IMG/VR virus record: IMGVR_UViG_3300032829_000002
Location: 1-64,000 of that record
Origin: an uncultured virus (IMG/VR IMGVR_UViG_3300032829_000002)
Taxonomy: Duplodnaviria; Heunggongvirae; Uroviricota; Caudoviricetes
Direction: 5' to 3' (one strand)
DNA: 64,000 nt
Every line of letters starts with the position of its first letter. The first letter of the stretch is position 1. Positions 23,293 to 44,720 of this stretch are shown here, one piece after another. The translations under genes were made by a program, and so were the position numbers. The notes beneath the pieces are model-generated. The model was not told where the DNA came from and searched no databases. It was given only the letters and a program-made list of their open reading frames with translations.

Positions 23293-23320
23293 CTTGTTCC
23301 TTCTCGCTCGAGCTACTTGC
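23293..23320 (-). promoter_or_regulatory. Putative phage promoter GCAA-N16-GGAACAAG upstream of recA
   Basis: One of four copies of this motif, each ahead of a minus-strand gene cluster. Confidence 0.55.
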
Positions 23321-23741
23321 TACCGGTGCCGGGGATGCCCTCGAAGGGCTGGGTGCCGCAGCTCGAGCAAATCAACAGGTTGCCCTGCCTCTCCACCTTG
23401 CCGCCGCACATCGGGCAACCCTGGGCAGCTCGCTTCTCGAGCTTCTCTTGGTCCTGCCCCGTGGTCTCGTCTACGCCGTACTTCTGCATGGGTCTCGCTC
23501 CGTGTTGCCCCAGGTGCTCCTGGAGGTTCTTTTTGAAGTTCTTCGAACGAGAGAAGGATACCCGCAACGCGGTGACTTCGCCCTTCATTCGAAACTTCCC
23601 GAGGGTAGGCAGATAGACGCGTTCTCCACGCAGGAGGTCGTGGACGATCAGCCTCAAGAACGTCGAGGTGATCGCCGCAACTTCCTGCGTGGAGTAGTTC
23701 GTCACGGCTGCGATGCGCTGGTCGAGTTGCTTCTTGTTCAC
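23313..23741 (-). CDS. HU/IHF-like DNA-binding protein with a C-terminal zinc ribbon
   Basis: 'MNKKQLDQRIA...LLRGERVYLPTLGKF...VSFSRSKNFK' plus CPMC...CSSC. Confidence 0.7.
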   Translation of the reverse strand: MNKKQLDQRIAAVTNYSTQEVAAITSTFLRLIVHDLLRGERVYLPTLGKFRMKGEVTALRVSFSRSKNFKKNLQEHLGQHGARPMQKYGVDETTGQDQEKLEKRAAQGCPMCGGKVERQGNLLICSSCGTQPFEGIPGTGSK

Positions 23742-25687
23742 TTCGCATCCATCCAGCTTTTGCCCTTACCGATGGAGACCTCGAGTGGAACCGCGAGCTT
23801 GGTCGGCAGCGAGTCCTCCATGATCTCCTTGATGACCTTCAGGCACTCCTCCGTCGTCTCCTCTGGACCTTCGAAGGCGAGCTCGTCGTGAACCTGAAGC
23901 AGCATGTGGAAGCCGTACTCGTCGACGAGGTTGGCTTGATCGCAGAGAATCATGGCCATCTTCACGACGTCAGCCGCAGTGCCCTGGATCGGAACGTTGG
24001 ATGCTTGCCGCTCTGCACGCCAGCGGATGTCGTTCTGCGTGGAGTTGATCTCGGGCAGGAAGCGACGACGTCCCAACAGCGTGTACGCGTACCCCGTTTG
24101 CCGTACAACGCCGATGCTGTCCGCGTAGAACTTCTTCACCGCAGGGTAGCGGTCCATGTACCTGTTGATCAGGTTGATGGCCTCTTCCTTCGTGATACGC
24201 AGGTCGTTGGCGAGCTTCTTCTCCTTCATGCCGTAGTTGAGACCGAAGCCGATGGTCTTGACGTGCTGCCTCGCCTCCAGGCACTTGCGGTAGTAGTCCG
24301 TCATCTCCGCCTCGGGCAGCTCGCCGGCTTTGACCTTCTTGTCGACCTTCTTGGCCTTCTCCAGGTCTTCGTACGGGATGTTGAACACGAGCGAGGCGTT
24401 GCCCATGTGGATGTCCCATCCCTTGAGGAAGATGTCGATCATGTCCTTCTCGAGGGCCGCGGCAGCCAGCAGACGCATCTCGAGCTGCTCGTAGTCGGCG
24501 ACGATCAGGTTGTTCCCCGGCTCTGAGATGAACGCACGGCGGATGCGGTACTTGTCCGTGTCGGGGCGCGGGATGTTCTGGCAGTTGATCTCCGAAGAGG
24601 AAAGACGACCAGTTCGCGCGACGTCTTGGTTGAACTTGTAGTGAACGCGCCCCCACTGGTCGAGGTGGTCACGGATGCCGTCGATGTACGTGCCCTTCAG
24701 CTTGCTGAGGTCACGCTGTTTGAGCATCAGCTCCGCAACCGGGTCTCGGTACTCGCCCGCTAGAAACTCGAGCGTGTCGAAGTCCGTCGACGGCTCTTTC
24801 TTTCCTGTCTTGCCCCCCTTGGTGAGCTTCAGGGGACGGTACTTCTTTTCCTCGAAGAAGTACTGGCGAAGCTGCATCGAGCTGTTGGTGTTGAAGGGCC
24901 GCCCGACCATCTTCACGATCTCTCGTTCGATTCTTTGGAGCTCCGCGGTCACGGGAACGTCGGCAGCCTTCAGGTACTCCTCGTCGATGAAGAATCCGTT
25001 GCGTTCGCACTTCCAGAGCACCCGCGTGAACGGCGACTCGATCTTGTAGAAGACGTCGTGCAGCGTGTCGTACAACTCGGGGTAGAGGCTCCAGGTGATA
25101 GCTTCCTCGAGCTCCTTCTTCAGCTTGTTGCGGATGAAGAGGGTGCCGTACGCGTCGTTCGAAGCGTATTCGGCAAGACGACCTACGTCTTCTTGTTCGA
25201 GACGCGTGAGGAACGCCTTCGGGCCTTCCTTCTTGAAGCCAGTCTTGAAGTCGTCCTTCCATGTCCACCCCAGGACTTGGCGGGCCATGTTCTCGAGCGA
25301 GTGGCTTTCCTCTTCATAGAGCAGCGCGTGCATGACCTGGGTGTCGCAGATCGTGCCCTTCAACTCGATGCCGACGTTGTACAACATGTGCGTGTCGTAC
25401 TTCGCGTTCGCGAAGACCCACTCCTTCTTCTCGTCCTTGAAGGACTCGCGGAAGAACTGCATCGTGTCGGAGCGCATGCAAATGCGACGGAAGCGGCCGG
25501 GCATGTCCGTCTCGTAGGAGATCGACCAGTACAACGGGATGTCCCGCATGTAGTTGCGGCCGGTCGTCTCGGTGTCGATCGCAACGACACTCTTCTCTTT
25601 CACCTCTTGCACGATCTGCATCAGCGCTCGTCGATCGGTCTCCGAGGTGTACCACTCGGCGTCTGGCATCGAGATGTTCCAGGCCAT
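23738..25687 (-). CDS. polA: Family A DNA polymerase (3'-5' exonuclease plus polymerase, no 5' nuclease)
   Basis: 'IDTETTG' ExoI, 'NAKYD', 'RTGRLSS', 'ADYEQLEMR' motif A, 'KTIGFGLNYG' motif B, 'QVHDEL' motif C. Confidence 0.95.
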   Translation of the reverse strand: MAWNISMPDAEWYTSETDRRALMQIVQEVKEKSVVAIDTETTGRNYMRDIPLYWSISYETDMPGRFRRICMRSDTMQFFRESFKDEKKEWVFANAKYDTHMLYNVGIELKGTICDTQVMHALLYEEESHSLENMARQVLGWTWKDDFKTGFKKEGPKAFLTRLEQEDVGRLAEYASNDAYGTLFIRNKLKKELEEAITWSLYPELYDTLHDVFYKIESPFTRVLWKCERNGFFIDEEYLKAADVPVTAELQRIEREIVKMVGRPFNTNSSMQLRQYFFEEKKYRPLKLTKGGKTGKKEPSTDFDTLEFLAGEYRDPVAELMLKQRDLSKLKGTYIDGIRDHLDQWGRVHYKFNQDVARTGRLSSSEINCQNIPRPDTDKYRIRRAFISEPGNNLIVADYEQLEMRLLAAAALEKDMIDIFLKGWDIHMGNASLVFNIPYEDLEKAKKVDKKVKAGELPEAEMTDYYRKCLEARQHVKTIGFGLNYGMKEKKLANDLRITKEEAINLINRYMDRYPAVKKFYADSIGVVRQTGYAYTLLGRRRFLPEINSTQNDIRWRAERQASNVPIQGTAADVVKMAMILCDQANLVDEYGFHMLLQVHDELAFEGPEETTEECLKVIKEIMEDSLPTKLAVPLEVSIGKGKSWMDAK

Positions 25688-25698
25688 TCATCCTCCAG

Positions 25699-25735
25699 AA
25701 AGAAAAAAGCCCGCGCCGATTCCTCAGCGCGGGCT
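25699..25735 (-). terminator. Intrinsic terminator between the putative SSB and polA
   Basis: Stem agcccgcgc/gcgcgggct followed by a T-run (TTTTTCTTT) on the minus strand. Confidence 0.75.
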
Positions 25736-25743
25736 CGTTGTGC

Positions 25744-26922
25744 TCAGTGTCCGTAGTTGGGTCCCTGCGGTCCACCGACGGGTTGTCCGCCGCCGTACGG
25801 GCGGTACCCCTGGTTCGTGACGGGTCCTGCGCCCTGCGCCTCGAAGAGACGATCCTGCACCTCGAGGGGCGTCGGAGCGTACATCTTGTCGAGAGGCAGC
25901 GGCTTTGCGATCTCCGTGAACGATGGATCGATCGGGCAGGGGTGTGACCAGTCCGTCACCATGAGCGTCGTCTGGTTGCCCCCCTCCTTCGAGTTGTTGA
26001 TGCGCTGAACGTGGATGTTGACGTCGAAGATCGAGGCACGGCGCGCATTGCCGCATGCGGTGCACTCGTACATCTCCTGCGCCATCACTCGGTTCTTGCA
26101 GGCCGGGCACTCGATTTCTCGCATCACGATCTTCGCGATGTCCGCGTCGGTCATGGTGGTGGTCGAGAGGTCGATGATCGCCTCGCCGCAGCCTTCGACG
26201 GGGCACACCCAGGCGATGGACCGGATGCTGTTCTTGGTGCCGCAGCTTGCGCACGAGTTGCCCACGAGCGGGTTGTACGCCTCGATCAGCGTGTTGAAGT
26301 GCGAGTACCCCATCGGCCAGGGGCGCACACGCCCGTGCTTCGTCTCCTTGCCGGCCTTGCACGCCGTGCAGGTTCGACCTTCGCACGGATGCCAGTCGTA
26401 GTAGGGCTCGCCACGCTCGTTCACGCGGATCTGCCCCGTGTTCTGATCGAGCGACTCCACCTTGTGGTACGGAGCCATGTGCAAGAAGTTGAAGACGAAC
26501 ATGTCGCGCTTCGACATGCGCTTCGTCGTCCCCTTCGGTGCTCCGAGGCCCTCGTAGAACATGTCGCATCCGCGGCAGTCGTCCCGCTTGCCCTTGAAGT
26601 TGTGCAGCGGACCACCCGAGCAGACGCTGGACTTGTTCGTGCGTCCGTCGAAGTGCTCGACGAACGGGAAGAACTCGAGTTGCACCTCTGCGAGGCTTTC
26701 GCCCTTCTCGTCACCGGCGATCTGCACGGTGTAGTTGCCGGGAAGCAGGCGGCCGACGTCGAGTGCGTGAGGACCCATGGGCGGCTTGTACTCGTCGCTG
26801 AAGCGACGGCCACGGGTCGTGCGCGGTCCACGCGAATGGTCCTTGAAAGCGGTAGCGCGCTGGTTGAGCGAGCCACCGAAAGCGGGCACACGGCCCAGCC
26901 TGGTGGGATCTTTTCCGAACAT
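25744..26922 (-). CDS. Cys-rich putative ssDNA-binding protein (gp32-like) with zinc ribbons
   Basis: 'FFPFVEHF...VC...CRGC...MFVFNF'; several CxxC pairs; lies between primase and polymerase. Confidence 0.5.
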   Translation of the reverse strand: MFGKDPTRLGRVPAFGGSLNQRATAFKDHSRGPRTTRGRRFSDEYKPPMGPHALDVGRLLPGNYTVQIAGDEKGESLAEVQLEFFPFVEHFDGRTNKSSVCSGGPLHNFKGKRDDCRGCDMFYEGLGAPKGTTKRMSKRDMFVFNFLHMAPYHKVESLDQNTGQIRVNERGEPYYDWHPCEGRTCTACKAGKETKHGRVRPWPMGYSHFNTLIEAYNPLVGNSCASCGTKNSIRSIAWVCPVEGCGEAIIDLSTTTMTDADIAKIVMREIECPACKNRVMAQEMYECTACGNARRASIFDVNIHVQRINNSKEGGNQTTLMVTDWSHPCPIDPSFTEIAKPLPLDKMYAPTPLEVQDRLFEAQGAGPVTNQGYRPYGGGQPVGGPQGPNYGH

Positions 26923-26924
26923 TG

Positions 26925-27905
26925 TTACCTCTCTATCGGCCCGATGTAGTCCACCGCCTTCGAGACGGCCTCTTGGACTTGTTGTGGGCTCAGGTCGGTT
27001 GGTTGACGTTCTTCGTACTGCACGACGCGCACCCGCAGGGTCCGGGCGAGCCGTCGGCTGATCTGCATGACTCCTTTCTGTCCAGCCTCGTCGTTGTCGA
27101 GAAACAAGTAGACCGCACCACCCATGCGCTCAAGTACCGCGCGCTGGTACGGGGAAAGGAAGGACCCCATCAGCGCTACGGTGTTCTTGAAGCCGGCCTG
27201 CCATGACCACATGCACGCCTTGAATCCTTCGCACACGAGAATGGCAGGTGACTTGTCGAACCAGGACTCGGGGTAGACGCGCTCCGCGTTCCAGAGAATG
27301 TGACTCTTGTCCGTGGAGATGGGCGTCAGTCCCCAAGCCTTGTATTCCTTCTCCGAGTACACTTTGTACCGCGGGTGATCGTCCATCGTCGCTCTGCCAC
27401 TGATGCCGACAAGTCGCCCGAGGATGTCCCGGATAGGAAACGTGATACGGTTGTTCTTCGTGTCGTAGCCGACGTCGAAGTGCTTCAGCGTGTCTTCGGA
27501 GAAGCCCTCCTCGAGGAGGGACAGCGGGCAATGCTCGAAGAGACCGAGACTGCTCTCCTCGAGAACACCGCTGGTCAGGCCGCTGAAGATGCGCTGAGCC
27601 TTGCGAGTCTGCCGCGCTGCACGCTCCTCGATCTGCTCGAGCAACGGCTTGTAGAACGTGTCGATCGTCTTGCCGGGAACGCCGATGTCCCGCAGGAACG
27701 TTCGAAGGTTCCCCTTCTCGTGGCAGGCGTGGCACATCCACAAGCCTGTCGTGAGCGAGATTGCGAACGACGGCGTCTTCTCCGGAAGTCCTGTTTCCGC
27801 CTTCACGTGGAAGGGGCAGATGGCCATGACGTTGTCAGGGCCGCTTCGTCGTGCGCCGTCCAGGAACTTCGAGACGACGTCGAGGACTTCGGTGTTGATG
27901 GTCAT
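26925..27905 (-). CDS. dnaG: DnaG-type DNA primase (CHC2 zinc finger plus TOPRIM)
   Basis: 'CPFH...CHAC', 'RITFPI...GR', 'VCEG', 'FLDNDEAG'. Confidence 0.9.
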   Translation of the reverse strand: MTINTEVLDVVSKFLDGARRSGPDNVMAICPFHVKAETGLPEKTPSFAISLTTGLWMCHACHEKGNLRTFLRDIGVPGKTIDTFYKPLLEQIEERAARQTRKAQRIFSGLTSGVLEESSLGLFEHCPLSLLEEGFSEDTLKHFDVGYDTKNNRITFPIRDILGRLVGISGRATMDDHPRYKVYSEKEYKAWGLTPISTDKSHILWNAERVYPESWFDKSPAILVCEGFKACMWSWQAGFKNTVALMGSFLSPYQRAVLERMGGAVYLFLDNDEAGQKGVMQISRRLARTLRVRVVQYEERQPTDLSPQQVQEAVSKAVDYIGPIER

Positions 27906-29314
27906 ACGATGTCTTTGATGTTTTCCTTGACCTCGGAGATGGTGGAGGTCGGAACGTTGTCCTTGTTCATCTTCGTCACGGGCTGCCGCGTGATCGCTTT
28001 CTTCTTCTTTTCGTCTTCGCCACCCTCAGCGTCTTTCTCAGCGGCCTTGGAGATTTCCTTCTCCGTCATCTCGCGGTTGAATGAAAAGTCGACGCAGGGG
28101 CGCGCGTTGATCTTGACTCCGTGGAGCTTGAACTCGCGGGAGCCACCGATGACCAGTGACACGGTCGGATGCTCATCCGATCGATCGTTGATGCAACGAA
28201 TAGCCACCGTTGCGTCTTGTCCGATGGCGTCGGAGTACGCGATCTCGTCGAGCTCCGCGTTGTTGTGCTTCGCCGCGTTGCGGTTGGCTTGCATCGTAGC
28301 GACGAGCGGGATGCGCGTTCCGAGGACCATGTCGCGTGCTGCTCGAGAGATCGAGGCGACACGCTCGTGGTCTTTACCGGGTTTGCCATCGGCGCTCATC
28401 AGGTACAGGCCATCGATGAAGACGATGTCTGGTTGGTACTTGTCGACCTTGCTGCGGACCCACGACATGCTGTCCTGACCCGCAGGAGCGTCACGTCCCG
28501 AGATGCAGATGATGTTGTGGCTACCCTGCGTGGCCTTCGATTGCTCTCTGACCATCATGTAGAGATCGTTGAGCTTCTGCTCGTCTTCTGGGCTCAAGCG
28601 GCCAAGACGAAGCTCGCTGTATGGCAGGCGAGCGATGAAGGCTCCGACTCGGCGGAAGAGCTGCCAAGCGGGCATCTCCTTCGTGTAGACGAGCACCTTC
28701 TTTCCCTGGTCGTATGCGCTCGCAGCCATCGCGGACAACACGAAGGACTTCATGCTCTTCGGTCGACCGTACAGAACGATGTAGTCGTCCTCTTGGATGC
28801 CGAGTGTCTGCTCGTTGAACGGTTCCCATGGCCAGAGCAGCGAGGAGTTGCCTACGCCGTCCTTGGCGTTCTTGTAGCGAAGAAGGAGCTCCTCCATCGC
28901 GTCATCGAAGTGGGAGTCGTAGTTCTTCAACCCGACGTTCTGTAGTCGTTGCAACTCGCTGACGAGGCTGTTGAGTGCCCCCATCGGGTCGACGTCGATG
29001 TCCTCCAGACGGTTGCCGATGTACTCCTTCATTTCGAGTGCGAGACGGTTCTTTCGAACTTCGGTACAAAGCGCCTCCGTCGTCATCGACGGGTCATCAC
29101 AAAATTCGAAGGTCGGGTACGCCTCCTTGATGAGAAAGGGGCCGGGGATGGCACCCTGCGTGTCGTTCGCACGCCAGTAGCCAAGGATGTTGACGAACAG
29201 CCCGCGGCCTTCCGTGGTACGGAAGTCGTTCGGGACGATACCCCAGTCGAGGGCAGCGGCGAGGGCGCCTGTTCGTACGATGCGGCTGAGTAGCTGCATC
29301 TCGATGTGAGCCAT
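27902..29314 (-). CDS. dnaB: DnaB-like replicative helicase
   Basis: 'GRPKSMKS' Walker A, 'VFIDGLYLM', 'QANR', 'IAYSDAIGQDA'; ATG at 29314 after GGAGG. Confidence 0.85.
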   Translation of the reverse strand: MAHIEMQLLSRIVRTGALAAALDWGIVPNDFRTTEGRGLFVNILGYWRANDTQGAIPGPFLIKEAYPTFEFCDDPSMTTEALCTEVRKNRLALEMKEYIGNRLEDIDVDPMGALNSLVSELQRLQNVGLKNYDSHFDDAMEELLLRYKNAKDGVGNSSLLWPWEPFNEQTLGIQEDDYIVLYGRPKSMKSFVLSAMAASAYDQGKKVLVYTKEMPAWQLFRRVGAFIARLPYSELRLGRLSPEDEQKLNDLYMMVREQSKATQGSHNIICISGRDAPAGQDSMSWVRSKVDKYQPDIVFIDGLYLMSADGKPGKDHERVASISRAARDMVLGTRIPLVATMQANRNAAKHNNAELDEIAYSDAIGQDATVAIRCINDRSDEHPTVSLVIGGSREFKLHGVKINARPCVDFSFNREMTEKEISKAAEKDAEGGEDEKKKKAITRQPVTKMNKDNVPTSTISEVKENIKDIV

Positions 29315-29349
29315 GGTGCCTCCTTGCAATAGTTGTCCTGCGCGCAGCC

Positions 29350-29376
29350 CTTATACCGGGTGGCGCGCAGAGTTGC
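29350..29376 (-). promoter_or_regulatory. Putative phage promoter GCAA-N15-GGTATAAG upstream of dnaB
   Basis: Copy of the repeated motif, located just downstream of a terminator. Confidence 0.6.
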
Positions 29377-29390
29377 GTCGGTCGTCTCGG

Positions 29391-29437
29391 GGGTAGAAAA
29401 AAGGAGAAGGGCGTACCTTGCGGCCGCCCTTCTTTTT
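29391..29437 (-). terminator. Intrinsic terminator (possibly bidirectional)
   Basis: Stem agaagggcg/cgcccttct (29405-29433) with A/T tracts on both sides. Confidence 0.7.
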
Positions 29438-29531
29438 CCGTCGTCAGTGCGTCTGGGGGTAGATCATGACGCGCGCTCCGTGGACTGCTCACGATGCTCG
29501 AGGGCATCGAAGAAGTCAACCGACGCGCGCC

Positions 29532-29882
29532 TCATGCAATCGATTCGGCGTCTTCTCCTTGACTATCCAGGTGTTCCCCGAGTCCGCCAGGCGAAACGAC
29601 GCGCGAAGAGGTGGCAGGCATCGTGATTCCGCCGGGTTCTTCGATGCCCGCCTCGAGGAAGTGGGCGGCGGCCATGTCTGCCTCCATCGCGTCCTTCAAC
29701 TCGCGAAGTTTTTGAATGGTCGACGGGGACCAGGTCTGGTGCGTCGTCCATCCGTGCGTTGCGCCCGTTTCCAGATTCACGAAGGCGGCCTTCGCCGTCA
29801 TCTTCCCCGTTGGCGGGTTGATGAAGTCGGCTTCGAGGCTTGCGATCGCGAGCGCGTTTGGCTTGAGCGTGCCTTTTCTCAT
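29532..29882 (-). CDS. Hypothetical protein
   Basis: ATG at 29882 overlaps the upstream stop (ATGA). Confidence 0.6.
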   Translation of the reverse strand: MRKGTLKPNALAIASLEADFINPPTGKMTAKAAFVNLETGATHGWTTHQTWSPSTIQKLRELKDAMEADMAAAHFLEAGIEEPGGITMPATSSRVVSPGGLGEHLDSQGEDAESIA

Positions 29883-30208
29883 CGGGGGGTGCCTGCCGGC
29901 GGAGGTGATGCAGCGATGTTCGGAAGAGGCGGCGCGAGATCGTCGAGGCTGCTTCGAGCGATCTCTTTCGCCGTGCGGTAGGCAATCTCTCCCGCTTCGA
30001 AGACGGTGGCCTCGTCCTGGTTGCACGTCAGGCGGACTGCGACGTGTACCTTCGCTTCACCGAAGCCCAGTGTCGTGCCAACGAGAACTTCGACCTGCGC
30101 CTTCTCGTCGCCGAGGAGGTCACGTACGCGGTCGTTCTTGATGGCTCCTCCTTCTCGTTTGATCTCGTTGCCGTCGAGGTCGGTGATCGATTTGCTGTAG
30201 TTCATCAT
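29879..30208 (-). CDS. Hypothetical protein
   Basis: Coupled overlaps on both sides. Confidence 0.6.
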   Translation of the reverse strand: MMNYSKSITDLDGNEIKREGGAIKNDRVRDLLGDEKAQVEVLVGTTLGFGEAKVHVAVRLTCNQDEATVFEAGEIAYRTAKEIARSSLDDLAPPLPNIAASPPPAGTPR

Positions 30209-30654
30209 GGCAGCTTGTACGTCTCCGGCTTCTTGTAGCTACGCTTCACGCCGACGCAGGTCTCTTTGACTTCCTGCGGAACGTGCCCTGCCTCGAGGTG
30301 GGAGATGAACCGCGTGCGATCGAGCTTGTACGTGGTCACCTTCTCGGTGTAGCCACCGACTTCTGCGAAGCCGTCCGGTCCGAGCTCGTCGAAGAGTTTC
30401 TCGACGTCGATGTCGACAGTCTCCGAGAGCTTGTTGAACGGTCCGCAGGAGACGCCGCTGGCACGAACGACTTTCTCGGCGGCTTGCAAGTACGTGTTGC
30501 GCTCTTCGACCAGCTCCGCGAGCTTCTTGTAGAAGTCCGGGTTGCTGTCGATGAGCTCCTGAATTTTCTTCTCGGTTTCGAGGAGCTGCTCGACCTCCGG
30601 GATCTCTTTGATGTCGACGACGGTCTTCGGAGTTCGCGCGTTACCCTTGGCCAT
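30205..30654 (-). CDS. Hypothetical protein with an N-terminal coiled coil
   Basis: GAGG RBS; in the operon. Confidence 0.65.
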   Translation of the reverse strand: MAKGNARTPKTVVDIKEIPEVEQLLETEKKIQELIDSNPDFYKKLAELVEERNTYLQAAEKVVRASGVSCGPFNKLSETVDIDVEKLFDELGPDGFAEVGGYTEKVTTYKLDRTRFISHLEAGHVPQEVKETCVGVKRSYKKPETYKLP

Positions 30655-31522
30655 ATTGATCCTCGTCCTCCTCCCGCTCGCGCAGGTTGTCGATCGTTTC
30701 CTCGATCTGCTCGTCCGTTGCGTTGCTGTTCGTCGTTACGGTGACACCGAACACCTCGACCATGTACTGCTCGTAGATGCGCACCGCTTTTCGGATGTCG
30801 GAAGCGAACTGGCGTAGCGCGCTGTTGTTGCGCTTGTCCGACAGCGATCGTAGGACGTACGCAGGGTGCAGCGTTGGAAGAAGAAGGTAGCGGACCTCGT
30901 TCGGTTCCGTCGGGGCAACAGTCTTGCCCCCGATCTTTCGAATCCAGGCACCCTTCTTCTCTGTGAGCGACGCACGATGCGACGCTCCTGGAATGGTGAT
31001 GTGTCGCTCCTTGCCCCTCTCCTGGGTGATCGCGACTGCCTTGCCGGTCAGTGCTTCAGCGGCTTTTGCTCCAAGACTGACGATCAGCACGGGGTCGACG
31101 AGATAGATCTCTTCGAGCAGCCGCGGCAAGCAAGCAGACACGGCTACGGCAGACGGCGGCTCGTCTCGGTATAGCGGCATCGGGGGGCGTTTGCCGAACG
31201 ACTTGCCGAACATCGGAGAGCCGTCTGCCGTCGTCATCGGCGTGCAAGAACGGCACGCTACGACGTTGGTCACGTAGAACTTGTCGAACCGGAATTGGCT
31301 GAGGACAGTGCGGAAGATTCCTCCCGACTCTCCAACGAACGGCCGGCCCTGGCGTTCTTCGTTCTTTCCAGGGCCTTCGCCAACGAAGAGGATGGCACGA
31401 GGCTCACCCTCTCCGAAGACCATCTCGCCGTTCACCGCCATCCGGTGCGTGCCAAGTTCACAGCGCGTGCAGTTCGACCACTCCTGGTTCAGCACGTGCA
31501 GCGACTTGCGGGCGTCCATCAC
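30641..31522 (-). CDS. Family 4 uracil-DNA glycosylase
   Basis: 'CTRC', 'VGEGPG..E..QGRPFVG.SG', 'TNVVAC', 'HPAY'. Confidence 0.9.
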   Translation of the reverse strand: MMDARKSLHVLNQEWSNCTRCELGTHRMAVNGEMVFGEGEPRAILFVGEGPGKNEERQGRPFVGESGGIFRTVLSQFRFDKFYVTNVVACRSCTPMTTADGSPMFGKSFGKRPPMPLYRDEPPSAVAVSACLPRLLEEIYLVDPVLIVSLGAKAAEALTGKAVAITQERGKERHITIPGASHRASLTEKKGAWIRKIGGKTVAPTEPNEVRYLLLPTLHPAYVLRSLSDKRNNSALRQFASDIRKAVRIYEQYMVEVFGVTVTTNSNATDEQIEETIDNLREREEDEDQYGQG

Positions 31523-32025
31523 GGTTTCGGACCCTGCCCTCGCATCATCTGCGCGAGCTGCGCCATCGACATGCCCGGCGGCATCTGCGGCATCATCAGA
31601 GGCGACCCTGCCGTTTCTTTCGAAGGACCTCCTGCTTGCCGTGCGTGCTCGATGGTCCGTGCCGCTTCTTCGATGTAGCTTTGGTGGACCTTCTTGTCGG
31701 ATTCGTCCATGTCCTCGACGAAGTAGATCGAGGCGACATCTTTCAGGTAGAGCGGTGGGCTGCCGAGCGTCGTTCCGAGCGGCGTCACGAAGCTCCTCTT
31801 CACGATGCCGCCTTCGGGCGACGGCCCGAGGGACACGGCGTACTCGTGAGCGGGCAGCGCCTTCAGGACGAGCCGGCCTTTCATGAACTGCTTCATCACC
31901 GTCTCTTTCAGAGACGTGCTCACGATCGGCTGCCCTTCCTCGTCGAACACGGAGATGATGTTCATCAGGTAGAGATCGCCGCTAGCGGCGCGTACGACTG
32001 CCCAGAGTGCGTTGTCTTCGTTCAT
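31519..32025 (-). CDS. Hypothetical protein
   Basis: ATG at 32025 overlaps the helicase stop. Confidence 0.6.
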   Translation of the reverse strand: MNEDNALWAVVRAASGDLYLMNIISVFDEEGQPIVSTSLKETVMKQFMKGRLVLKALPAHEYAVSLGPSPEGGIVKRSFVTPLGTTLGSPPLYLKDVASIYFVEDMDESDKKVHQSYIEEAARTIEHARQAGGPSKETAGSPLMMPQMPPGMSMAQLAQMMRGQGPKP

Positions 32026-33728
32026 CGTTTTCTTCCTTTGGGGTAGTTCAGTAGCTCGTACTCGTACGGACCGCCGTCGTCGATAGGCCACTGTCGAAGG
32101 TGCTTCCGCATCTTCTGGCACATGCCGATCATCGGCCCGATGTTGTCTTCTAGCACCACGACGACCGGTGCTTTCTTTCCTTCCTTGTGACGGAGAACTC
32201 GGCCCATCACCTGCTGAAGCATGTTCTTCGAGCTCATCGGCTCGAGAATGATCACGGTGTCGAGCGCGGGGTTGTCGAGGCCCTCCTTGCCGTACTTCAT
32301 GATGGCGAAGGTGACCCTCTTCTCCTTGAGCATCTTCATCCGATGCTTCGGATCGACACGGTGAATCATCAGTCCTGCGTCACTGTCCTTACGCAGGGTT
32401 CGAGCGATGTACTCACGTTGCTTTTTCCGTCGAAGGGCTTCGACTTTCTCGAACACCTCATGCGCTTTGATGGTGCTCTTGTAGATCGCGATCTCCTTCT
32501 CGAGCCCTTCGAAGACGTCCTTGTCGAGTGACGCGTCTTGCAACGCCGTCTCGAGATTGCTGATGGCCGTCAGCATCTTCGCAAGAGCGACATCGTCGAG
32601 GCGTTGCGGTTGCACGGTCTCTCCGACCTCGCTCGGATCGACACTGATGTCGGTGTAGAGCTCCGTGTTGCCATTCCAGAGCGCGAGTAGATTCACGAGC
32701 TCGTCGATGGAGTTCGAGAGCACGAGGATCTTTCGGTCTTGCGCGAGGGCGTTGCGGATCTCGTTCTGGATGAAGTCGAGGCGCGGGCGCCACTGTCCGA
32801 AGTAGACGGCGAGCTTGGACAGGTGCAGCTCACCGTTGTCCGTGCAAGTCGCGTCGACCACCGCAGGGTCTTGCATGTTCAACTCGAGTCCTGTGTACGT
32901 GAAGTAGATGCGTGGACGCATCTCCTGAACGAGGTCTCGGTAGAGAACCTTGCCGAAGTGGAACTCGTGGATGACGTGCAGGCCATCTTCTCGTTCGGGT
33001 GTCGCGGTGAGACCGTACCGGCGCCCGTAGAACAAGTCTGCGCTTCGAGAGAACGTCGGTGCGTTGACGTGATGCGCCTCGTCCCAGCCGATGATGCCGA
33101 ACCACCGACGAACTTCTTCTGGCATGTCGGCTGCGCGTCTTGCGAGGGTTTGGTATGTCGAGAGCACGACCCACTTCTTCCAGTCGAACGTCTGCTCTTG
33201 AATGAGGCCGACGCCGCCAGGAACATCCAAGAAGGTGGAGATCGCCTCCGACCACTGCTCGAGAAGCTGCGTGTTATCGACCACGATCAGTCCTGGCATG
33301 CCCGAACGAGCAATGACCTCCAGGAAGACGACTGTCTTGCCCTTACCGCAGGCAAGTTGGAGAATGCCACCGCGCGCGCTCATCAACGCATCGACCGACT
33401 TGCGTTGAACGTCGCTGCCAGTGGGAATGAGGGAGCCGTCGTTCTGCCTTTTGTGGTCCAGCGTGATGCGACTCCGAACAGGAGAGCGCGAGTAGCGCTG
33501 CGGTCGGCAATCGACGATCTCGAACGGAAGTTGGTCGCGCGGCCAGAACTCACGCGGCACGACCAGATGATCTGCCGTCTCTCGGTAGAGGGGGAGATCC
33601 GTGGGGATACGGTCCTTCCCCTCCAAGTACGAGAACGTGAGGGCGCGCTTCACGCCCTCAACGTTGAAGTGGACTTTGGGTACCCAGAGATTCGTATCCA
33701 GGTACCCTCGATCGGAGAGCTTGTTCAT
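32022..33728 (-). CDS. Superfamily 2 DEAH helicase (UvsW/Rad25-like)
   Basis: 'LACGKGKT', 'DEAHH', 'GLTATPER', 'EGLD', 'QVMGR'. Confidence 0.9.
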   Translation of the reverse strand: MNKLSDRGYLDTNLWVPKVHFNVEGVKRALTFSYLEGKDRIPTDLPLYRETADHLVVPREFWPRDQLPFEIVDCRPQRYSRSPVRSRITLDHKRQNDGSLIPTGSDVQRKSVDALMSARGGILQLACGKGKTVVFLEVIARSGMPGLIVVDNTQLLEQWSEAISTFLDVPGGVGLIQEQTFDWKKWVVLSTYQTLARRAADMPEEVRRWFGIIGWDEAHHVNAPTFSRSADLFYGRRYGLTATPEREDGLHVIHEFHFGKVLYRDLVQEMRPRIYFTYTGLELNMQDPAVVDATCTDNGELHLSKLAVYFGQWRPRLDFIQNEIRNALAQDRKILVLSNSIDELVNLLALWNGNTELYTDISVDPSEVGETVQPQRLDDVALAKMLTAISNLETALQDASLDKDVFEGLEKEIAIYKSTIKAHEVFEKVEALRRKKQREYIARTLRKDSDAGLMIHRVDPKHRMKMLKEKRVTFAIMKYGKEGLDNPALDTVIILEPMSSKNMLQQVMGRVLRHKEGKKAPVVVVLEDNIGPMIGMCQKMRKHLRQWPIDDGGPYEYELLNYPKGRKR

Positions 33729-34267: not shown

Positions 34268-34305
34268 TCTTGTCCTCCTGGGTCTATGCCCGGTTGTTCG
34301 TTTCC

Positions 34306-34334
34306 CTTATTCCGCTGCGGCGGCTAACCTTTGC
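34306..34334 (-). promoter_or_regulatory. Putative phage promoter GCAA-N17-GGAATAAG
   Basis: Copy of the repeated motif in a divergent intergenic region. Confidence 0.6.
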
Positions 34335-34386
34335 GGTATTCTTGCGGTACCGGCCGTTGGCCGATTACGCTCAGACAGGGAGCGCC

Positions 34387-34920
34387 ATGGAAAAGCTCAG
34401 CGGACTTCTGCTCGACGTGTACGACGACCCCACCGGGCATCTCTTTCGAGAGATCTTCCCGAGCCGACTCGAGGTGCCGGAGCTCGTCAAGAGCGCGCAC
34501 TTGCTCAGCGAGGAAGAGCGTCGCTCGCTCCCGGACGATGTCTTCGCGCTCGTTCTCCGCGATGGTGACGTGACGCTTCGCAAGTTCGCGTGCGTCGATC
34601 CAGGCAACGTCGCGCTCTCAATGCTCTACTTTTCCAAGACCGCCGCCAAGCTGCCGAAGGAAGCGCAGAAAGCTGCTGCGCGCAACCTGCTCACCGCCGA
34701 AAGCTGGTACAAGGCAGCAGGCATCGGAGGTTCCTTGCTTGGAGCCGCCGGCAAAGGAGTCGGTGGTCTTTTGGGAAAGGGGCTGGGGTGGGCTGCCAAG
34801 AATCCGATGAGCGCGCTGAGTGGCGCGATGACGGCGTACGGCGTCGGTCAGACCGCGAAGGAGATCGGCGGCAAACTTCGCAACATCAGCGGCCAGATGG
34901 CGCCCACGATTCAAGGATGA
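34387..34920 (+). CDS. Putative head-associated protein (DUF6582-like 'ERRSLPDDVFAL...RKF' segment, K-x-A motifs)
   Basis: ATG at 34387 after GGAG; Gly/Ala-rich tail. Confidence 0.55.
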   Translation: MEKLSGLLLDVYDDPTGHLFREIFPSRLEVPELVKSAHLLSEEERRSLPDDVFALVLRDGDVTLRKFACVDPGNVALSMLYFSKTAAKLPKEAQKAAARNLLTAESWYKAAGIGGSLLGAAGKGVGGLLGKGLGWAAKNPMSALSGAMTAYGVGQTAKEIGGKLRNISGQMAPTIQG

Positions 34921-35849
34921 GCACCATGAAACAAGCAGAGCTCGCGAACACGCATACGATGCCGGCGGAGAGTACGGACACCTCGACGACGACCAAGGCG
35001 GTCGTTGCGAAGAAGACAGCGGCGATCGGACACCTGGTCAAGGGCAAGAACGGTCACCGCGGAGAGGAAGGCATCCTGCCGGAGACGAACACGGAGATCA
35101 AGGGGAAGCATCCAGGCAAGCTGCCGCAGATGCGCCTTCTTCAGCCGCACGTCGACGTTGCTGGTTTCGAGCCCCCGAAGAAGGTGCAGGAGAAGAAGGC
35201 CAGCACGTACGCGCTGGGTGCGCGCTACCCCTTGGACAGCTACGCGCAGGTCAAAGCCGCCGCGGCGTACTTCGACGAGTTCGGCAAGCGCATGGCGCCT
35301 CCCGATCGACACGAGTACTGCTGCAACCTCGTCAAGCGCGCGTCGGAGCTCGGCATCCCGGTGTCCGACGAGGTCCGCAAGTACGGTTCGGAGAAGTACG
35401 CTCCCGTCGAGGAGATCAAGGTCGCCCTCGACGCGCGTCGTTCTCTTCTCGAACCGGGCAAGTTCACGGCGGCTCTCGACAAGCTGGCGGCCGTTCGTGA
35501 GCAGCTCGAGCCGGAGATGTTCTGCCTCACGCTCAGCGAGTTCGACAAGACGGCGGGCCTCGAGTTCTGCTACGACCGCGATGTGCCCGATCCGTACTAC
35601 TCGACCTACGGCTTCGAGAAGACCGCGACCTTCAGTGAGGTCATCGGCAACATCCACGTCACCGAGGCCGACCTCGAGTACCTCGCGATGAAGCGGTTGC
35701 CCTTGGTCAAGGGGACCTTCAGCGACGACATGGCCGAAGAGTTCCGCAAGGACCCCGTCGGCATCTTCAAGTCTCTGCCGCTCGCGCAGCGCCGTATTCT
35801 GGCGAACATGGCGCGCGAACAGCACTCGGGTGCGCCTGGAAGTGGTTGA
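34917..35849 (+). CDS. Putative head-associated protein (DUF6582-like 'RYPLDSYAQVKAAAAYF', K-x-A motifs)
   Basis: ATGA overlap; multiple KTA/KLA/KQA motifs. Confidence 0.55.
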   Translation: MSTMKQAELANTHTMPAESTDTSTTTKAVVAKKTAAIGHLVKGKNGHRGEEGILPETNTEIKGKHPGKLPQMRLLQPHVDVAGFEPPKKVQEKKASTYALGARYPLDSYAQVKAAAAYFDEFGKRMAPPDRHEYCCNLVKRASELGIPVSDEVRKYGSEKYAPVEEIKVALDARRSLLEPGKFTAALDKLAAVREQLEPEMFCLTLSEFDKTAGLEFCYDRDVPDPYYSTYGFEKTATFSEVIGNIHVTEADLEYLAMKRLPLVKGTFSDDMAEEFRKDPVGIFKSLPLAQRRILANMAREQHSGAPGSG

Positions 35850-39674: not shown

Positions 39675-39708
39675 GGGCTAAAAAAGCAGGGCCAGAAGGC
39701 CCTGCTTT
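39675..39708 (-). terminator. Intrinsic terminator at a convergent junction (possibly bidirectional)
   Basis: 11-bp stem aaagcagggcc/ggccctgcttt, then TTTAGCCC on the minus strand. Confidence 0.75.
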
Positions 39709-40475
39709 CAACCAACGAGTCGCCACACTCCGTCGCTGCCGAGACGGATGTTTCCTTCTCCGGTTGCGATCTTGTACCCCCTGGATTGGTACGCGTACCG
39801 CACGCGAAGATCGAACGGCGATCGTTCTTTCACGAGCTGCGTCACGAAGTACTTTCCTTCGATGAGCCCTCCGCACCGCAGGTAGATTCGAGCCCAGGAT
39901 GCTTCGTCGAGGCTGACAGCGACGACCTGCCTCCACTTCGCTCGTCGCGCATCGAGCTTGGCAGCGATCTTGACCTCGTTTGGATAGGCTCCTCTTTTCG
40001 TGCAGGTTACAACGATCTCTCCTCTTGTGAGGAAGGGAACTGAGTAGATCTTGACGTCGTGCCCGACGTTTGGCGTCGAACGAAGCTGCCAGCGTTCGAG
40101 TACCTCCCGTGCCTTTGCAAGTACGAACGGCGAAGGGCGTAGGAAGCGTCGACCCTCGAGTGGGTCGAACACTGTCGTTCTTCGTACGTACCTCGTATTC
40201 CTAACCTCTCGAGGTTCGTTTCCTTCAAGAAGGTGCGGAATGTCGATGCGGTCCTTCAACGCGGCGAAGTAGCTACCACCGCAGAGAAGAGCGCCTACGA
40301 TCTCCAAGCAAGATGACTGTTCTATCTTCGACTGTTCCATCATGTCGACTTCGGCCGCCAGTGTCTTCAGTCGAACGCCTGGATGATCGAGAAGCGTGAC
40401 GCGATGCCCTCGAAAACGAACGGTGTGCTCTTCTCCGTTGCAGCGCACTTTGAAGAGCACCTCGTTGTTTTTCAC
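39708..40475 (-). CDS. Hypothetical basic protein
   Basis: GTGA overlap with the VWA gene stop (alternative ATG at 40502); somewhat lower GC than the flanks. Confidence 0.55.
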   Translation of the reverse strand: MKNNEVLFKVRCNGEEHTVRFRGHRVTLLDHPGVRLKTLAAEVDMMEQSKIEQSSCLEIVGALLCGGSYFAALKDRIDIPHLLEGNEPREVRNTRYVRRTTVFDPLEGRRFLRPSPFVLAKAREVLERWQLRSTPNVGHDVKIYSVPFLTRGEIVVTCTKRGAYPNEVKIAAKLDARRAKWRQVVAVSLDEASWARIYLRCGGLIEGKYFVTQLVKERSPFDLRVRYAYQSRGYKIATGEGNIRLGSDGVWRLVG

Positions 40476-41668
40476 TTCGGAACGCGAACGACGTGACCCC
40501 ATGTCGCTGGCTCCTTTACTTGTTCTCCGACCAAGCACCAGATGACTTCCATCCCGGCCGGTGCTCGATCGGGTGCGGGACCGTACCCGTCGGTCAGGTA
40601 GATGAGAATGGAAGGCTTTGGATGAAGGCGTTGAGCTCGTTCGATGGCGGGACGAAAGTCCGTTCCACCACGCCCAACGATCTCCACTTCGACGAGCTCT
40701 GAGGCGCGTACGCGACGGATGCGTTCGTCGTACATCGCGTCGGCTTGAATGAACCAGGCGTCCTCTGCGCCTGACTGCATGATGATGCCGCGCGCTTCTC
40801 GGAGGCACGGCTTGATGTGTCGGTCGATATCCATCGAACCGCTCGTGTCGAGCACGATCGCGAACTCGATCTCCTCCCCAACCAGACCAGGACGGAAGGG
40901 TCCGGGAGGCATTCCATACGAGCGACGAGAAGGGCGCGCCATCGAGTAGTCGCTGTCGCCGTACGACAACTTGCTGACGCATGCGCGGATGGTGTTCTGG
41001 AAGAAGGTCTGCCACCGGATCGTGGACGGCGCGAGAATCGCTTTTGCCCACTGAGACCAGCCACCGCGAATCGTTCCATGCGTCTTCTCGTGACGGATGA
41101 TGTCGTCGGCAACCTGCTGTTTGATCTGCTCGACTTCGGATTCCTCTCGTCCGTACAGCTCGTCGAGTTCCTTCTCGAGCTCGTCGTTGCTCGCGTTACC
41201 GGCAACGCCGCCGCATTGCCCTGCGCATGCGCTCACTTCCTCGTTCGCCGCACTCGGCGGCACCAGTGCGTAGTACTCCTCGGCAGTCAGGTCCACGGGA
41301 AGGCCGTACTTCTCGGGGAGCAATCCGTCAGGAGAGAAGTCCCACGCGGGGTCGTGCCTTCCTGTCGTGTTGATGGCGAGGTCCTCGCAGATGTTCGCGA
41401 TGCGCTGGTTGACCCCGATCAATCGTGTGAAGGAGTGCCGCAACACGTGCTGTACTTCATGCCAGAGACGCGTACCGATTCTCTTCTCCGACTCCAGCTT
41501 CCGCAGGTAGTCGGGGTTGTAGTAGAGGATCATGCCTGGCGTGACGCCGAGCGTGGGAACGCGACGCTCGGCGTGTGGAATCAGGCTGAGCACGGCCCTA
41601 CCGAAGTAGGGCGCGTGCGCCTGCACGTACACTCGACCGAGCATGAGCAGCTCGTCTTCTACGCTCAT
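40472..41668 (-). CDS. Metallopeptidase-like (HExxH) plus VWA domain protein (DUF2201-type)
   Basis: 'WHEVQH', 'LDTSGSM' MIDAS, 'GRGGTDF', 'YLTDGYG'. Confidence 0.85.
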   Translation of the reverse strand: MSVEDELLMLGRVYVQAHAPYFGRAVLSLIPHAERRVPTLGVTPGMILYYNPDYLRKLESEKRIGTRLWHEVQHVLRHSFTRLIGVNQRIANICEDLAINTTGRHDPAWDFSPDGLLPEKYGLPVDLTAEEYYALVPPSAANEEVSACAGQCGGVAGNASNDELEKELDELYGREESEVEQIKQQVADDIIRHEKTHGTIRGGWSQWAKAILAPSTIRWQTFFQNTIRACVSKLSYGDSDYSMARPSRRSYGMPPGPFRPGLVGEEIEFAIVLDTSGSMDIDRHIKPCLREARGIIMQSGAEDAWFIQADAMYDERIRRVRASELVEVEIVGRGGTDFRPAIERAQRLHPKPSILIYLTDGYGPAPDRAPAGMEVIWCLVGEQVKEPATWGHVVRVPK

Positions 41669-42879
41669 ACGGCCTCCTTGTTCTTGTTGTAGTCGTAGAT
41701 CTTCTTCGCGTTCTTCATCAGACGATCTCCGAATCGTCCGATCACCGGCTCGGATGCTTTCGCCAGTTTCTCTCCACCGAGAGAGCTCAGGTTCTTGTTC
41801 ACGAGCTCGACCGCCGCGGGGTAGACGAGATCGGCGAAGCCAGCCTCGCAGCCACGTTGGAGAATCGGCCATGCTTTCAGCACCGCGTCGACCTGCGCCT
41901 GCTTGTGCGGAAGTCCAGTGATGTACGCAGCGAGAGAGATGTACACGACGTAGTTGCGATCGAGGCGTTTGTCCGGCTCGAAGCCTTCGCTCAAGACCTG
42001 CTTCGGAGAAGGCAGCTTCAAGTCGCGGCGGTAGGCGAGGAACTCGTCACGTGCACCAGCGCCGATGCACGCTTTGAGCATGACGGACTCGAGCTGCCCG
42101 CCGATGTTCAGGATGCGGCACGTCGTTGCTGCGCGGACGGCCCATTCCATCGTGCGCGCGGTCGGGAACGCTTTGCTTCGCTCTGTAGAGCCCGCATCGG
42201 GAATGTCCTCGAGGGCCTTCGGGAACCTTTCTGCGTAGCCCACGAAGACAGGTGCAACCTCGAGCCACGCCCTCGCCCAGTTCTCTTTGATCTTCGTCTC
42301 GATGTCGTAGAGAGGCGTGACGTCTTCCTCCTCGTTCTTGACGCCGAGCACGTAGTTTCCCCATTCGCGAGCCGTCGGCTTGTCCATCTCGTAATGGATG
42401 AACCGATTGGCGAGAGGAGCTTCGAGCGGGTGGCCGCCGGCGCTGGTCTCGACAGGGTTGGCGGCTGCGATGATACGAACCTTGCCAGGAATCTCGACGT
42501 CGCCAGACCGTCGGTCCAGTACGACGCCAAGAAGTGTGGACTGAACGGCGCTGCGGGCGGTGTTGATCTCGTCGAGGAACAAGATGCCCTCGCCGATCTC
42601 CACGAGCTCACGCACCGCCATCAGGATGCGGACGTGGTTCACGCCCCCTTTGCCATCCTGCAGTGCGAGTCCCGCGAAGTCCTGGGGACGACGTCCTGCC
42701 GGCAGGACGACGCCCGCGTACGTTTGCAGAAGCGCCGCAAGCTTCTTGATGCGGGAGGACTTGCCGATGCCCGGATTCCCCCAGATGAGCAACGGCAACC
42801 CCCACATGCAGTTCGGATCGTTCGGGTCTCCGAGGGGAACGGAGATGGCAACTCGGATCACATCTTCGACGGTGTGCAT
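41665..42879 (-). CDS. MoxR-like AAA+ ATPase
   Basis: 'GNPGIGKS', 'LFLDEIN', 'IIAAANP', 'PLANRF'; paired with the VWA gene. Confidence 0.85.
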   Translation of the reverse strand: MHTVEDVIRVAISVPLGDPNDPNCMWGLPLLIWGNPGIGKSSRIKKLAALLQTYAGVVLPAGRRPQDFAGLALQDGKGGVNHVRILMAVRELVEIGEGILFLDEINTARSAVQSTLLGVVLDRRSGDVEIPGKVRIIAAANPVETSAGGHPLEAPLANRFIHYEMDKPTAREWGNYVLGVKNEEEDVTPLYDIETKIKENWARAWLEVAPVFVGYAERFPKALEDIPDAGSTERSKAFPTARTMEWAVRAATTCRILNIGGQLESVMLKACIGAGARDEFLAYRRDLKLPSPKQVLSEGFEPDKRLDRNYVVYISLAAYITGLPHKQAQVDAVLKAWPILQRGCEAGFADLVYPAAVELVNKNLSSLGGEKLAKASEPVIGRFGDRLMKNAKKIYDYNKNKEAV

Positions 42880-43175
42880 TACTTGTCCTCGTTCTTCGTG
42901 TAGACGGTGACGACGTTGCCGGCGGAGTCCACGATGGCCCACCCGTCAACGCCCATGAAGGAGATCGGAACCTTGTTCTTGCCGTCGTAGTTGACGAGCA
43001 CCGTTCCGTCTTTGAACGCCGCTGCAATCTGCTGGTTGATGTGGTTGCGCACCTCTTGCTTGTAGAGGTGACGGCTGTCGAGCCAGCGCTCCATGAAGCG
43101 CTCGACGACATGGTCCGTCACCCCGTACGGGTTCCGCGCCATCCGAGTGGCGAGGAACTTGCCCTGCCCACTCAC
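42879..43175 (-). CDS. Small protein, possible BECR/DUF4258-like ribonuclease fold
   Basis: 'TDHVVERFMER...AIVD..GNVVTVY'; GTGA overlap (alternative ATG at 43142). Confidence 0.45.
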   Translation of the reverse strand: MSGQGKFLATRMARNPYGVTDHVVERFMERWLDSRHLYKQEVRNHINQQIAAAFKDGTVLVNYDGKNKVPISFMGVDGWAIVDSAGNVVTVYTKNEDK

Positions 43176-43804: not shown

Positions 43805-44388
43805 TCGACTGCAATCCTTTCTACGCGTCGCCAGCGCAACTCCGCGGTCTCGACGCGGAAGTCTGGAACGCCGTTCTCGAACCACTGCTCTCCTGCGAAC
43901 AACAGGAGCTCTTCGCAATCGACTCCGGGGCTGAGGTGGATTCGCCTCGTGAGCTCGACTCCTTCAGGCAAGAGCACCGCTCCCGTTACTTCTTCCTGCA
44001 CAAGCCGCATTTCTTGCTCACGCGCGTACAGGTCGTCGGTCAGGTCATCGTCATCCATCACGAATCCGAACCAACGTTCCTTGTCGAGCGGGTCGACGTA
44101 GTCCTGCCCGAGCCATCGGCAGTACGTCCCCGGTTGACCGACTCCAAGGAGGACCTCGAGGTCACGCTGGTTGATGAACGACGCGAAGCCCTTCTGATCG
44201 GTGGCGTGCGCGCGGATGCCACCGACGAGCCTTCCGCGCACCGGCAGGTAGACGCCGTCCAGCGTCCACTGCCGGTCGGCCCGTAGCGGGTCTGTCACCT
44301 TGACGCCGACAAGGCCGAAGGTTTCCTCCAGCATCCGCCCGCCGCACGTAGTGAAGCGGCTTCTTTCCTGTTCAGGGTGTACGATCAT
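43789..44388 (-). CDS. Hypothetical protein
   Basis: GGAGAGG upstream of ATG 44388. Confidence 0.55.
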   Translation of the reverse strand: MIVHPEQERSRFTTCGGRMLEETFGLVGVKVTDPLRADRQWTLDGVYLPVRGRLVGGIRAHATDQKGFASFINQRDLEVLLGVGQPGTYCRWLGQDYVDPLDKERWFGFVMDDDDLTDDLYAREQEMRLVQEEVTGAVLLPEGVELTRRIHLSPGVDCEELLLFAGEQWFENGVPDFRVETAELRWRRVERIAVEWRRI

Positions 44389-44467
44389 GGCGCAGCCTCT
44401 CCAGCATCCAGGCCCGCAGGCCGTGAAGGAATCCGAACAAGAGCGCCCAGCCAAAAAGATGCAGCAT
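44372..44467 (-). CDS. Small hydrophobic protein (31 aa, MLHLFGWALLFGFLHGLRAW...)
   Basis: TGATG coupling and GAGGAGG RBS; below the ORF-track length cut-off. Confidence 0.45.
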   Translation of the reverse strand: MLHLFGWALLFGFLHGLRAWMLERLRHDRTP

Positions 44468-44595
44468 CAGTCCTCCTCTTGGTCTTCCTCGTCGCACTCG
44501 TCGTCCACGTCTTCATCGTTCCAAAACAGCCGGTCGATGATCTCTTCGAACCTCTTGCCGGCGTTGTCGCCGGGCTCGATCGGGCAGTTCGTCAT
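44467..44595 (-). CDS. Small, very acidic protein (42 aa)
   Basis: ATG at 44595 after GGAG; C-terminus DEDVDDECDEEDQEED. Confidence 0.45.
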   Translation of the reverse strand: MTNCPIEPGDNAGKRFEEIIDRLFWNDEDVDDECDEEDQEED

Positions 44596-44649
44596 CAAAT
44601 TCTCCAACGCTGCGTTTTTGCGGCGAACGCGATGTTTTTCGCCATAGTT

Positions 44650-44677
44650 CTTGTTCCTGCGTCTGCACTCGTCTTGC
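44650..44677 (-). promoter_or_regulatory. Putative phage promoter GCAA-N16-GGAACAAG
   Basis: Copy of the repeated motif in the divergent region before the RNAP gene. Confidence 0.55.
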
Positions 44678-44720
44678 TCGACGTTCTGCGCGTGGGGTAA
44701 CTTGCTCAAGAGCACCCGCA

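Follow-up and report, generated by a model that had tools for sequence, protein, structure and literature searches.

A GCAA/ATAAG promoter class in a family of ~185-kb phages and its probable reading by a phage sigma factor joined to a fused RNA polymerase

Which polymerase, and with which specificity factor, reads a promoter-like element that has the layout of a sigma70 promoter and other letters? The question is raised by the window studied here, a stretch of 64 kb (64,000 nucleotides) that forms the beginning of the 120-kb phage record G000 (IMG/VR IMGVR_UViG_3300032829_000002), in which four copies of such an element are found, one of them directed away from the gene of a fused beta-beta' RNA polymerase (RNAP). 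A preliminary description had proposed a dedicated non-sigma70 promoter class with -35/-10 geometry, and had named the fused RNAP and a host alternative sigma as candidate readers. The consensus of the element is GCAA-N16-GGnATAAG-N5-Y/R (Y, pyrimidine; R, purine). Enrichment upstream of genes, family-wide conservation and the Y/R step support the proposed class, and there is very little doubt that the motif is a real, family-wide promoter class. Judged from sequence, it is probably an early promoter read by a virion-delivered phage holoenzyme, composed of the phage's own sigma factor and the fused RNAP.

All four copies lie on the minus strand. Copy 1 (23293..23320, spacer 16) stands 63 nt before the start of recA (22024..23229, minus strand), with a predicted +1 at 23286 on a C/G step. 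Copy 2 (29350..29376, spacer 15) lies 35 nt before dnaB helicase (27902..29314, minus strand), which is followed by a primase, a 392-aa open reading frame (ORF) and polA; its predicted +1 is 29343. Just upstream of this copy, the terminator-like sequence noted beforehand folds as a hairpin with a U-run (29397..29433, minus strand) at -23 kcal/mol (z -2.5). Copy 3 (34306..34334, spacer 17, predicted +1 34299) heads a helicase/UDG block whose first member, a 180-aa ORF, starts 38 nt downstream, and copy 4 (44650..44677, spacer 16, predicted +1 44643) precedes by 54 nt a 42-aa ORF that is a weak gene call. The positions, spacers and distances of about 35-65 nt given beforehand were thus confirmed, as was the lack of a spaced TTGC in the coding-region CTTGTTCC copies at 18603, 18993 and 21001. 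One detail had to be corrected: the third base of the downstream box, given as A or T, is actually any base, and GGGATAAG is the best form.

Within the window, the pattern GCAAN14-18GGWAYAAG has four matches against a mean of 0.02 in 100 shuffles (maximum 1), a count that is post hoc because the pattern was fitted to the same four copies; held-out DNA was therefore used for the tests. In the remainder of the record (G000 64001-120082), the strict pattern of the preliminary description has only one match (shuffle mean 0.02, maximum 1), and the pattern with the third downstream-box base free, a change made only after genome matches had been seen, has five (mean 0.06, maximum 1). The complete record of the same virus, G001 (184,953 bp, 99.99% identity), contains 18 matches against 1-2 for the reversed pattern. 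Of the 14 that fall outside the window, 11 are found no more than 100 nt ahead of a same-strand start; such stretches cover 6.4% of positions. A matrix trained on eight other genomes finds 31 sites of at least 15 bits in G001 (3 and 4 in reversed controls), and for 22 of these a start lies at most 100 nt away. The four window copies rank towards the weak end of this set (15.3-18.9 bits); the highest scores (22-25 bits) belong mostly to copies amid small accessory genes and ahead of the sigma gene described below.

Beyond this virus, which encodes a tail-sheath-like gene, a capsid, a terminase and the fused RNAP, an RNAP search returned 62 IMG/VR loci, comprising the virus itself and relatives at 35-66%. 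Cultured relatives, at 31% by RNAP, are Salmonella phage Arash and Vibrio phages D69, D148 and D181, in which the sigma is also present. The motif-bearing phages are a family of ~185-kb genomes that includes a cultured Salmonella phage. Across a set of 31 family records (29 of the 62 loci, selected on record length, plus G001 and Arash), 200 pattern matches were counted against 16 in controls. At least one match was found in 30 of the 31 records. Arash, G026, G027 and G028 have a single match each to the exact GCAA pattern, no more than the control level, and G013 has none. Expectation maximisation (EM) seeded on enriched 5-mers gave the ATAAG element as top motif in all six genomes tried, Arash among them. 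In two-block EM, which was seeded with the -10 box and so is not de novo, and which was degenerate for G018, the ATAAG core is retained in 14 whole genomes of 45-64% GC. The upstream word is more variable. Most IMG/VR genomes have GCAA or GnAA, and in G026 the -35 is weak; only a weak word resembling TCAA is seen in Arash and D69, where GCAA lies upstream of 1/30 and 0/21 sites, respectively. D69 has the form GTTATAAG, and GGTATAAG is there at control level (9 vs 11).

The position of the transcription start can be predicted from a second regularity. A pyrimidine 6 nt and a purine 7 nt past the final G occur at 197 of 216 non-coding sites in 14 genomes, against 1-29% at other offsets. This step was not part of the patterns by which sites were searched, and four of the 14 genomes were searched with the -10 box only. 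When the -10 box and the Y/R step alone serve as anchor, GCAA is found upstream in 18 of 24 G001 sites. The step at +6/+7 would place nATAAG at -12 to -7, as for a sigma-type -10 hexamer, and falls inside the range of about 5-8 nt past AAG in which a start had been expected. The T at -7 of the sigma70 box (TATAAT) is replaced by G or g in 6/6 genomes in the EM seeded on enriched 5-mers; Arash has 31 GGTATAAG and 2 GGTATAAT, and a scan for the sigma70 consensus in window 15001-35000 gave one site vs 2.6 expected. That the motif is not a promoter, being instead an operator or a chance by-product of ribosome-binding-site composition, is hardly credible. Purine-rich leaders past the motif would suit such an origin, as would the 36 of 252 pattern matches that lie in coding sequence (removed from the step count above; 20 of the 36 also have the step), but the fixed-distance step, strict orientation, bipartite spacing and variable distance to the start codon (17-83 nt) argue against it.

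The layout is close to that of alternative-sigma promoters. The sigma28 (FliA) consensus is TAAAGTTT-n11-GCCGATAA in the available text of PMC2859248, and its promoters share with the phage class a four-base -35 ending in AA and an ATAA in the -10 box; the sigma28 spacing is likewise found, the AA of the -35 and the A at -11 being 19 nt apart (the modal spacer of 16 and the three bases GGn). The letters differ, since the phage has GCAA rather than TAAA, and GGnATAAG shares only ATAA with GCCGATAA, carrying GGn in place of GCCG and a near-invariant G at -7. The motif would accordingly function in the manner of group-3 sigma promoters, although it is not itself a sigma28 promoter. A resemblance to SigF/SigB promoters was not used as evidence; the available text of PMC7438776 and PMC7522486 gave no usable consensus. 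From the sigma28-like geometry, a host alternative sigma of sigma28 or SigB/F type might be proposed as the reader. Both boxes are unlike the sigma28 consensus, the core is retained in Salmonella and Vibrio phages and across 45-64% GC, and GKTATAAG-N5-YR, which occurs 31 times in Arash (control 1) and 22 times in D69 (control 5), occurs 25 times (control 122) in the 4.6 Mb of E. coli K-12. Since this enteric chromosome lacks the ATAAG promoter class, a host sigma is a very improbable reader; of the two candidates named at the outset, the evidence leans towards the fused RNAP and away from the host alternative sigma.

A third player, which lies outside the window, is likely to be the specificity factor. 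A sigma70-family gene of 248 aa (G000 115450-116196, plus strand) with Pfam region 3 and region 4 matches has a motif copy (G000 115403-115430) 19 nt ahead of it. The protein packs domains 2, 3 and 4 into ~250 aa and has no region 1.1, as group-3 sigmas do. Its best models are FliA/WhiG (the top NCBIfam model) and SigB/F/G, all far below threshold (FliA/WhiG 37 bits against a cut-off of 190). By sequence alone it matches no solved structure at E<=1e-5; a profile search matches region 2.3-3 of solved sigmas, and is near full-length to 6pfv and 8x6g. In Foldseek, its model (pLDDT 80, pTM 0.43) finds SigD and SigB models as best hits, with a TM of only 0.34-0.35. A protein search with a narrower alignment returned 79 homologs, none from a contig larger than 198 kb. 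An ortholog is present in 20/31 family records, including 13/14 near-complete virus records, as well as Arash. The sigma, RNAP and capsid trees agree (rank correlations 0.88-0.93), and 5/6 supported sigma splits are common to the RNAP tree: sigma and fused RNAP are co-inherited. No second sigma and no alpha-subunit match was found among the 135 + 86 proteins scanned, a set from which very short ORFs and a few large virion-type proteins were left out. Further sigma-like genes occur in relatives. Arash gp196 is a second sigma (L088 20656-21693), with none detected in the five IMG/VR genomes compared, and G015 has a second sigma-like match of 388 aa.

Phage sigmas such as SPO1 gp28 and T4 gp55 bind and redirect the host core RNAP, each defining a private promoter class. 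The present sigma might likewise read the motif on host core, with the phage RNAP doing something else or part of the job; this is unlikely, although several observations suit it. In G001 and Arash a motif copy stands before the sigma gene, so that sigma, and not RNAP, would be made early, and the available text of PMC7598289 gives such a route for phages without their own RNAP. Besides the co-inheritance of sigma and RNAP, the details of the proteins argue against it. The bacterial beta' clamp-helix stretch RRVINRNNR is replaced, and is variable within the phage family, while most cellular sigmas align to the phage sigma profile only from position 77, past the core-binding part of region 2. 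In cellular enzymes, the clamp-helix stretch and this segment of region 2 make the sigma-core contact, and the divergence of both suggests a private sigma-core interface in the phage family. Phages of the SPO1 and T4 type are not known to encode a core enzyme of their own, and use their sigma promoters at middle or late times.

A different precedent is provided by phiKZ and AR9, which carry a virion multisubunit RNAP without alpha and mark their early genes with a conserved upstream motif (PMC7598289 and PMC7824862, available text). Virion delivery of an alpha-free RNAP would be common to both systems; here packaging is predicted from the proteomics of Arash. In the same sources, phiKZ/AR9 have two RNAP sets, subunits made of several chains, a single AT-rich box of ~10 nt and no sequence-recognisable sigma. 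The window virus, in contrast, has one RNAP set, one 2128-aa chain (44721..51107, plus strand, with the active site NADFDGD), a Pfam-detectable sigma and a bipartite promoter. By analogy, the RNAP itself or an unrecognised phage protein could read the motif, leaving the sigma to serve the TAnnnT class described below. The phiKZ/AR9-type enzymes do use factors without sequence similarity to sigma, most G001 proteins have no Pfam match, and G001 has no second sigma for its virion genes. The -35/-10/+1 geometry is nevertheless sigma-like, and in Arash the second sigma, which is not in the virion table, is available for the other class; such a reading has only a small chance of being right.

Among non-core genes, 179 of 2240 have the motif at their head, against 15 of 961 among core genes; these 15 are mostly genes of DNA metabolism or sigma, with no capsid, portal, terminase, sheath or RNAP gene among them. 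The motif stands before 0/12 RNAP genes, whereas a TAnnnT class stands before 9/12, and also before 5/5 genes immediately upstream of sigma, which are unit heads. Of 44 RNAP loci, 40 have a TAnnnT no farther than 45 nt from the gene start (mean in shuffles 14.5, maximum 24; 47 of the 62 loci were used, 44 after duplicate removal, and in four the region searched reaches a few codons into the gene). In the window, a sigma70-like element TTGCTC-N18-TAACTT faces the RNAP gene (44674..44703, plus strand), and another, TTGCGG-N18-TACGCT (34342..34371, plus strand), is divergent from copy 3 and stands before a virion-gene block. The class of the latter is present before the orthologs in relatives and heads baseplate and other virion-gene units; by eye, TAAAATAC lies upstream of several virion-type genes in Arash. 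Genome-wide, the full TTG-N17/18-TAnnnT class is only weakly enriched (9 and 11 matches vs 1-7 at other spacers), and it stands out solely ahead of the RNAP gene and of one virion block.

At the RNAP gene the two classes share letters. The TTGC of the element facing it is the GCAA of copy 4 on the other strand, and TAnnnT lies exactly 18 nt past the motif TTGC in 13 of 28 anchorable loci (0-3 at other spacers from 10 to 31), which are kin, though their spacers have diverged. A motif pointing away from the RNAP gene is present in 39/44 loci by a loose pattern and in 20 by a stricter one (no control). The TTGC at 44674 doubles as the -35 of the putative RNAP-gene promoter. Divergent promoters at 44674-44677 would need the same four base pairs, and may exclude each other. 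A related arrangement occurs elsewhere, with two divergent motif copies on one palindrome, TTGCGCGCAA, at G000 84499-84555 that gives GCAA to both strands, and a similar overlapping pair at G020 74809-74844.

Evidence on timing comes chiefly from Arash. Its virion proteomics places beta Gp206 at the top with 3516 spectra and also lists beta' Gp216; sigma Gp10 is present in the virion preparations with 24 peptides and 467 spectra, and the second sigma Gp196 is not in the virion table (PMC10585845). An RNAP gene with a sigma70-like element of the virion-gene type, taken together with RNAP in Arash virion preparations, suggests that the RNAP is likely to be produced late and packaged, and to act early in the infection that follows; we infer an early rather than a middle timing of the motif. 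With the same reader, middle timing would mean that host sigma70 RNAP transcribes the RNAP gene first, and that new RNAP and sigma then read the motif. It is an improbable course, but the least improbable of the alternatives: the TAnnnT near the RNAP start would serve it, and the genes behind copies 1-3 (recA, dnaB, the helicase block) are of a kind typically expressed at middle times. On the other side, the RNAP-gene element also heads baseplate and virion units, normally late, the strongest motif copies lie in the small-gene cluster, and RNAP and sigma are found in virion preparations.

In the preferred scheme, the motif heads non-virion genes, and transcription would start 7 nt past the last G of GCAA-N16-GGnATAAG. 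The phage sigma bound to the fused RNAP would read it, both being probably carried in the virion. Domain 4 of sigma would contact GCAA, domains 3 and 2 would recognise GG and nATAAG, respectively, and the invariant A would be -11. The pair would form a holoenzyme lacking a phage alpha subunit. Host RNAP would transcribe the virion genes and the RNAP gene later, from the sigma70-like elements, and the shared TTGC/GCAA (44674-44677) would make RNAP-gene transcription and the divergent early promoter mutually exclusive. A stronger version, in which an injected two-protein, alpha-free holoenzyme is orthogonal to the host both at the promoter (G at -7) and at the sigma-core interface, with TTGC/GCAA as a back-to-back switch, is put forward tentatively, at somewhat less than even chances.

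It is important to note the points that weigh against a virion-delivered, phage-specific holoenzyme. Several of the 31 family records are near-duplicates, and the core/non-core contrast is inflated because core genes are more often operon-internal. E. coli served as a stand-in for Salmonella in the promoter-class count. GCAA is fully lost only in Arash and D69, where the region-4 helix of sigma departs most from the SRxK-type motif; the covariation of sigma with -35 and that with -12 each amount to one change on the tree, and are therefore not independent evidence. Furthermore, the G026 sigma retains SRxK, yet GCAA is found at only 2 of 13 G026 sites. The list of 116 Arash proteins includes primase, ligase and ribonucleotide reductase, and its authors allow for carry-over (PMC10585845). 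A motif copy also precedes the sigma gene itself (at 19 nt in G001, 296 nt in Arash), as would suit an extra sigma on host core, and host RNAP could express the RNAP gene at once from the sigma70-like element ahead of it. A further candidate, aromatic residues of sigma region 2.3 fixing the T at -12, was dropped as evidence, being one split on the tree.

The available text of two reviews (PMC7598289, PMC7824862) describes jumbo phages with RNAP but no recognisable sigma, or with sigma but no RNAP; the present family encodes the two together, and the motif fills in the promoter that was missing, with a start predicted to the base. Tailed phages whose beta and beta' are detectable by cellular-type models have been grouped as mReC Caudovirales (PMC7481178, available text). 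The window virus likewise encodes beta and beta' homologs; it differs from the group in that its capsid has no Pfam match (phrog_2522) in place of PF07068, and its terminase is PF05876 rather than PF03237. The main text of that paper, as available, makes no mention of sigma or promoter. Arash has an orthologous RNAP and sigma Gp10 (31% each), and GGTATAAG heads its non-virion genes; unlike the window virus, it divides its RNAP between two genes and has a second sigma, and its -35 is weak and TCAA-like. The word 'promoter' never occurs in the main text of its description (PMC10585845). In the literature searched, with subscription papers and the Arash supplements outside its scope, no description of the GCAA/ATAAG promoter class was found.

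The system, which can be tested directly in cultured Arash or by two-gene co-expression in E. coli, touches on the assembly of a bacterial-type core without alpha and on the way in which a sigma may read G at -7, and the motif offers a sequence marker for early genes over ~30 phage records. If the holoenzyme is indeed orthogonal, it would be a promoter-specific polymerase of bacterial type in minimal form, which could be put to use for orthogonal expression.

Several further observations concern the polymerase and its gene neighbourhood. The Arash RNAP is split after ~1525 aa into two genes 4.8 kb apart (L088 30093-41261), between which lie oppositely oriented genes carrying the motif; the D69 RNAP piece is similar in size to the Arash one. 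RNAP matches in L017, L025, L027, L034, L048 and L052 are 1-2.5 kb longer than those of other members, which suggests introns or inteins. A protein with an inorganic pyrophosphatase domain (PF18823; window 1549-2049) clusters with Arash Gp217, a virion-abundant protein annotated as helicase whose gene adjoins beta'; it could clear pyrophosphate for injected RNAP. Terminator-like hairpins, such as that at window 15176-15199 (minus strand) and many in G001, frequently finish in a T/C run with AGCC behind it, and several lie just upstream of GCAA. Of 335 hairpin sites in 14 genomes, 45 continue with AGC, more than with any other word; the ending is possibly a terminator signature of the phage RNAP.

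Other features were noted in the window and its continuation. Many plus-strand virion-block proteins (window 34387-64000, G000 64000-73000) contain repeated KTAA/KLAA-like words, possibly maturation-protease sites. Downstream of copy 4, an AAA ATPase is paired with a DUF2201 metallopeptidase/VWA protein (window 40472-42879), a pair present in 9/14 genomes, and a deoxynucleotide kinase (window 18030-19169) carries an in-frame HNH-AP2 insert.

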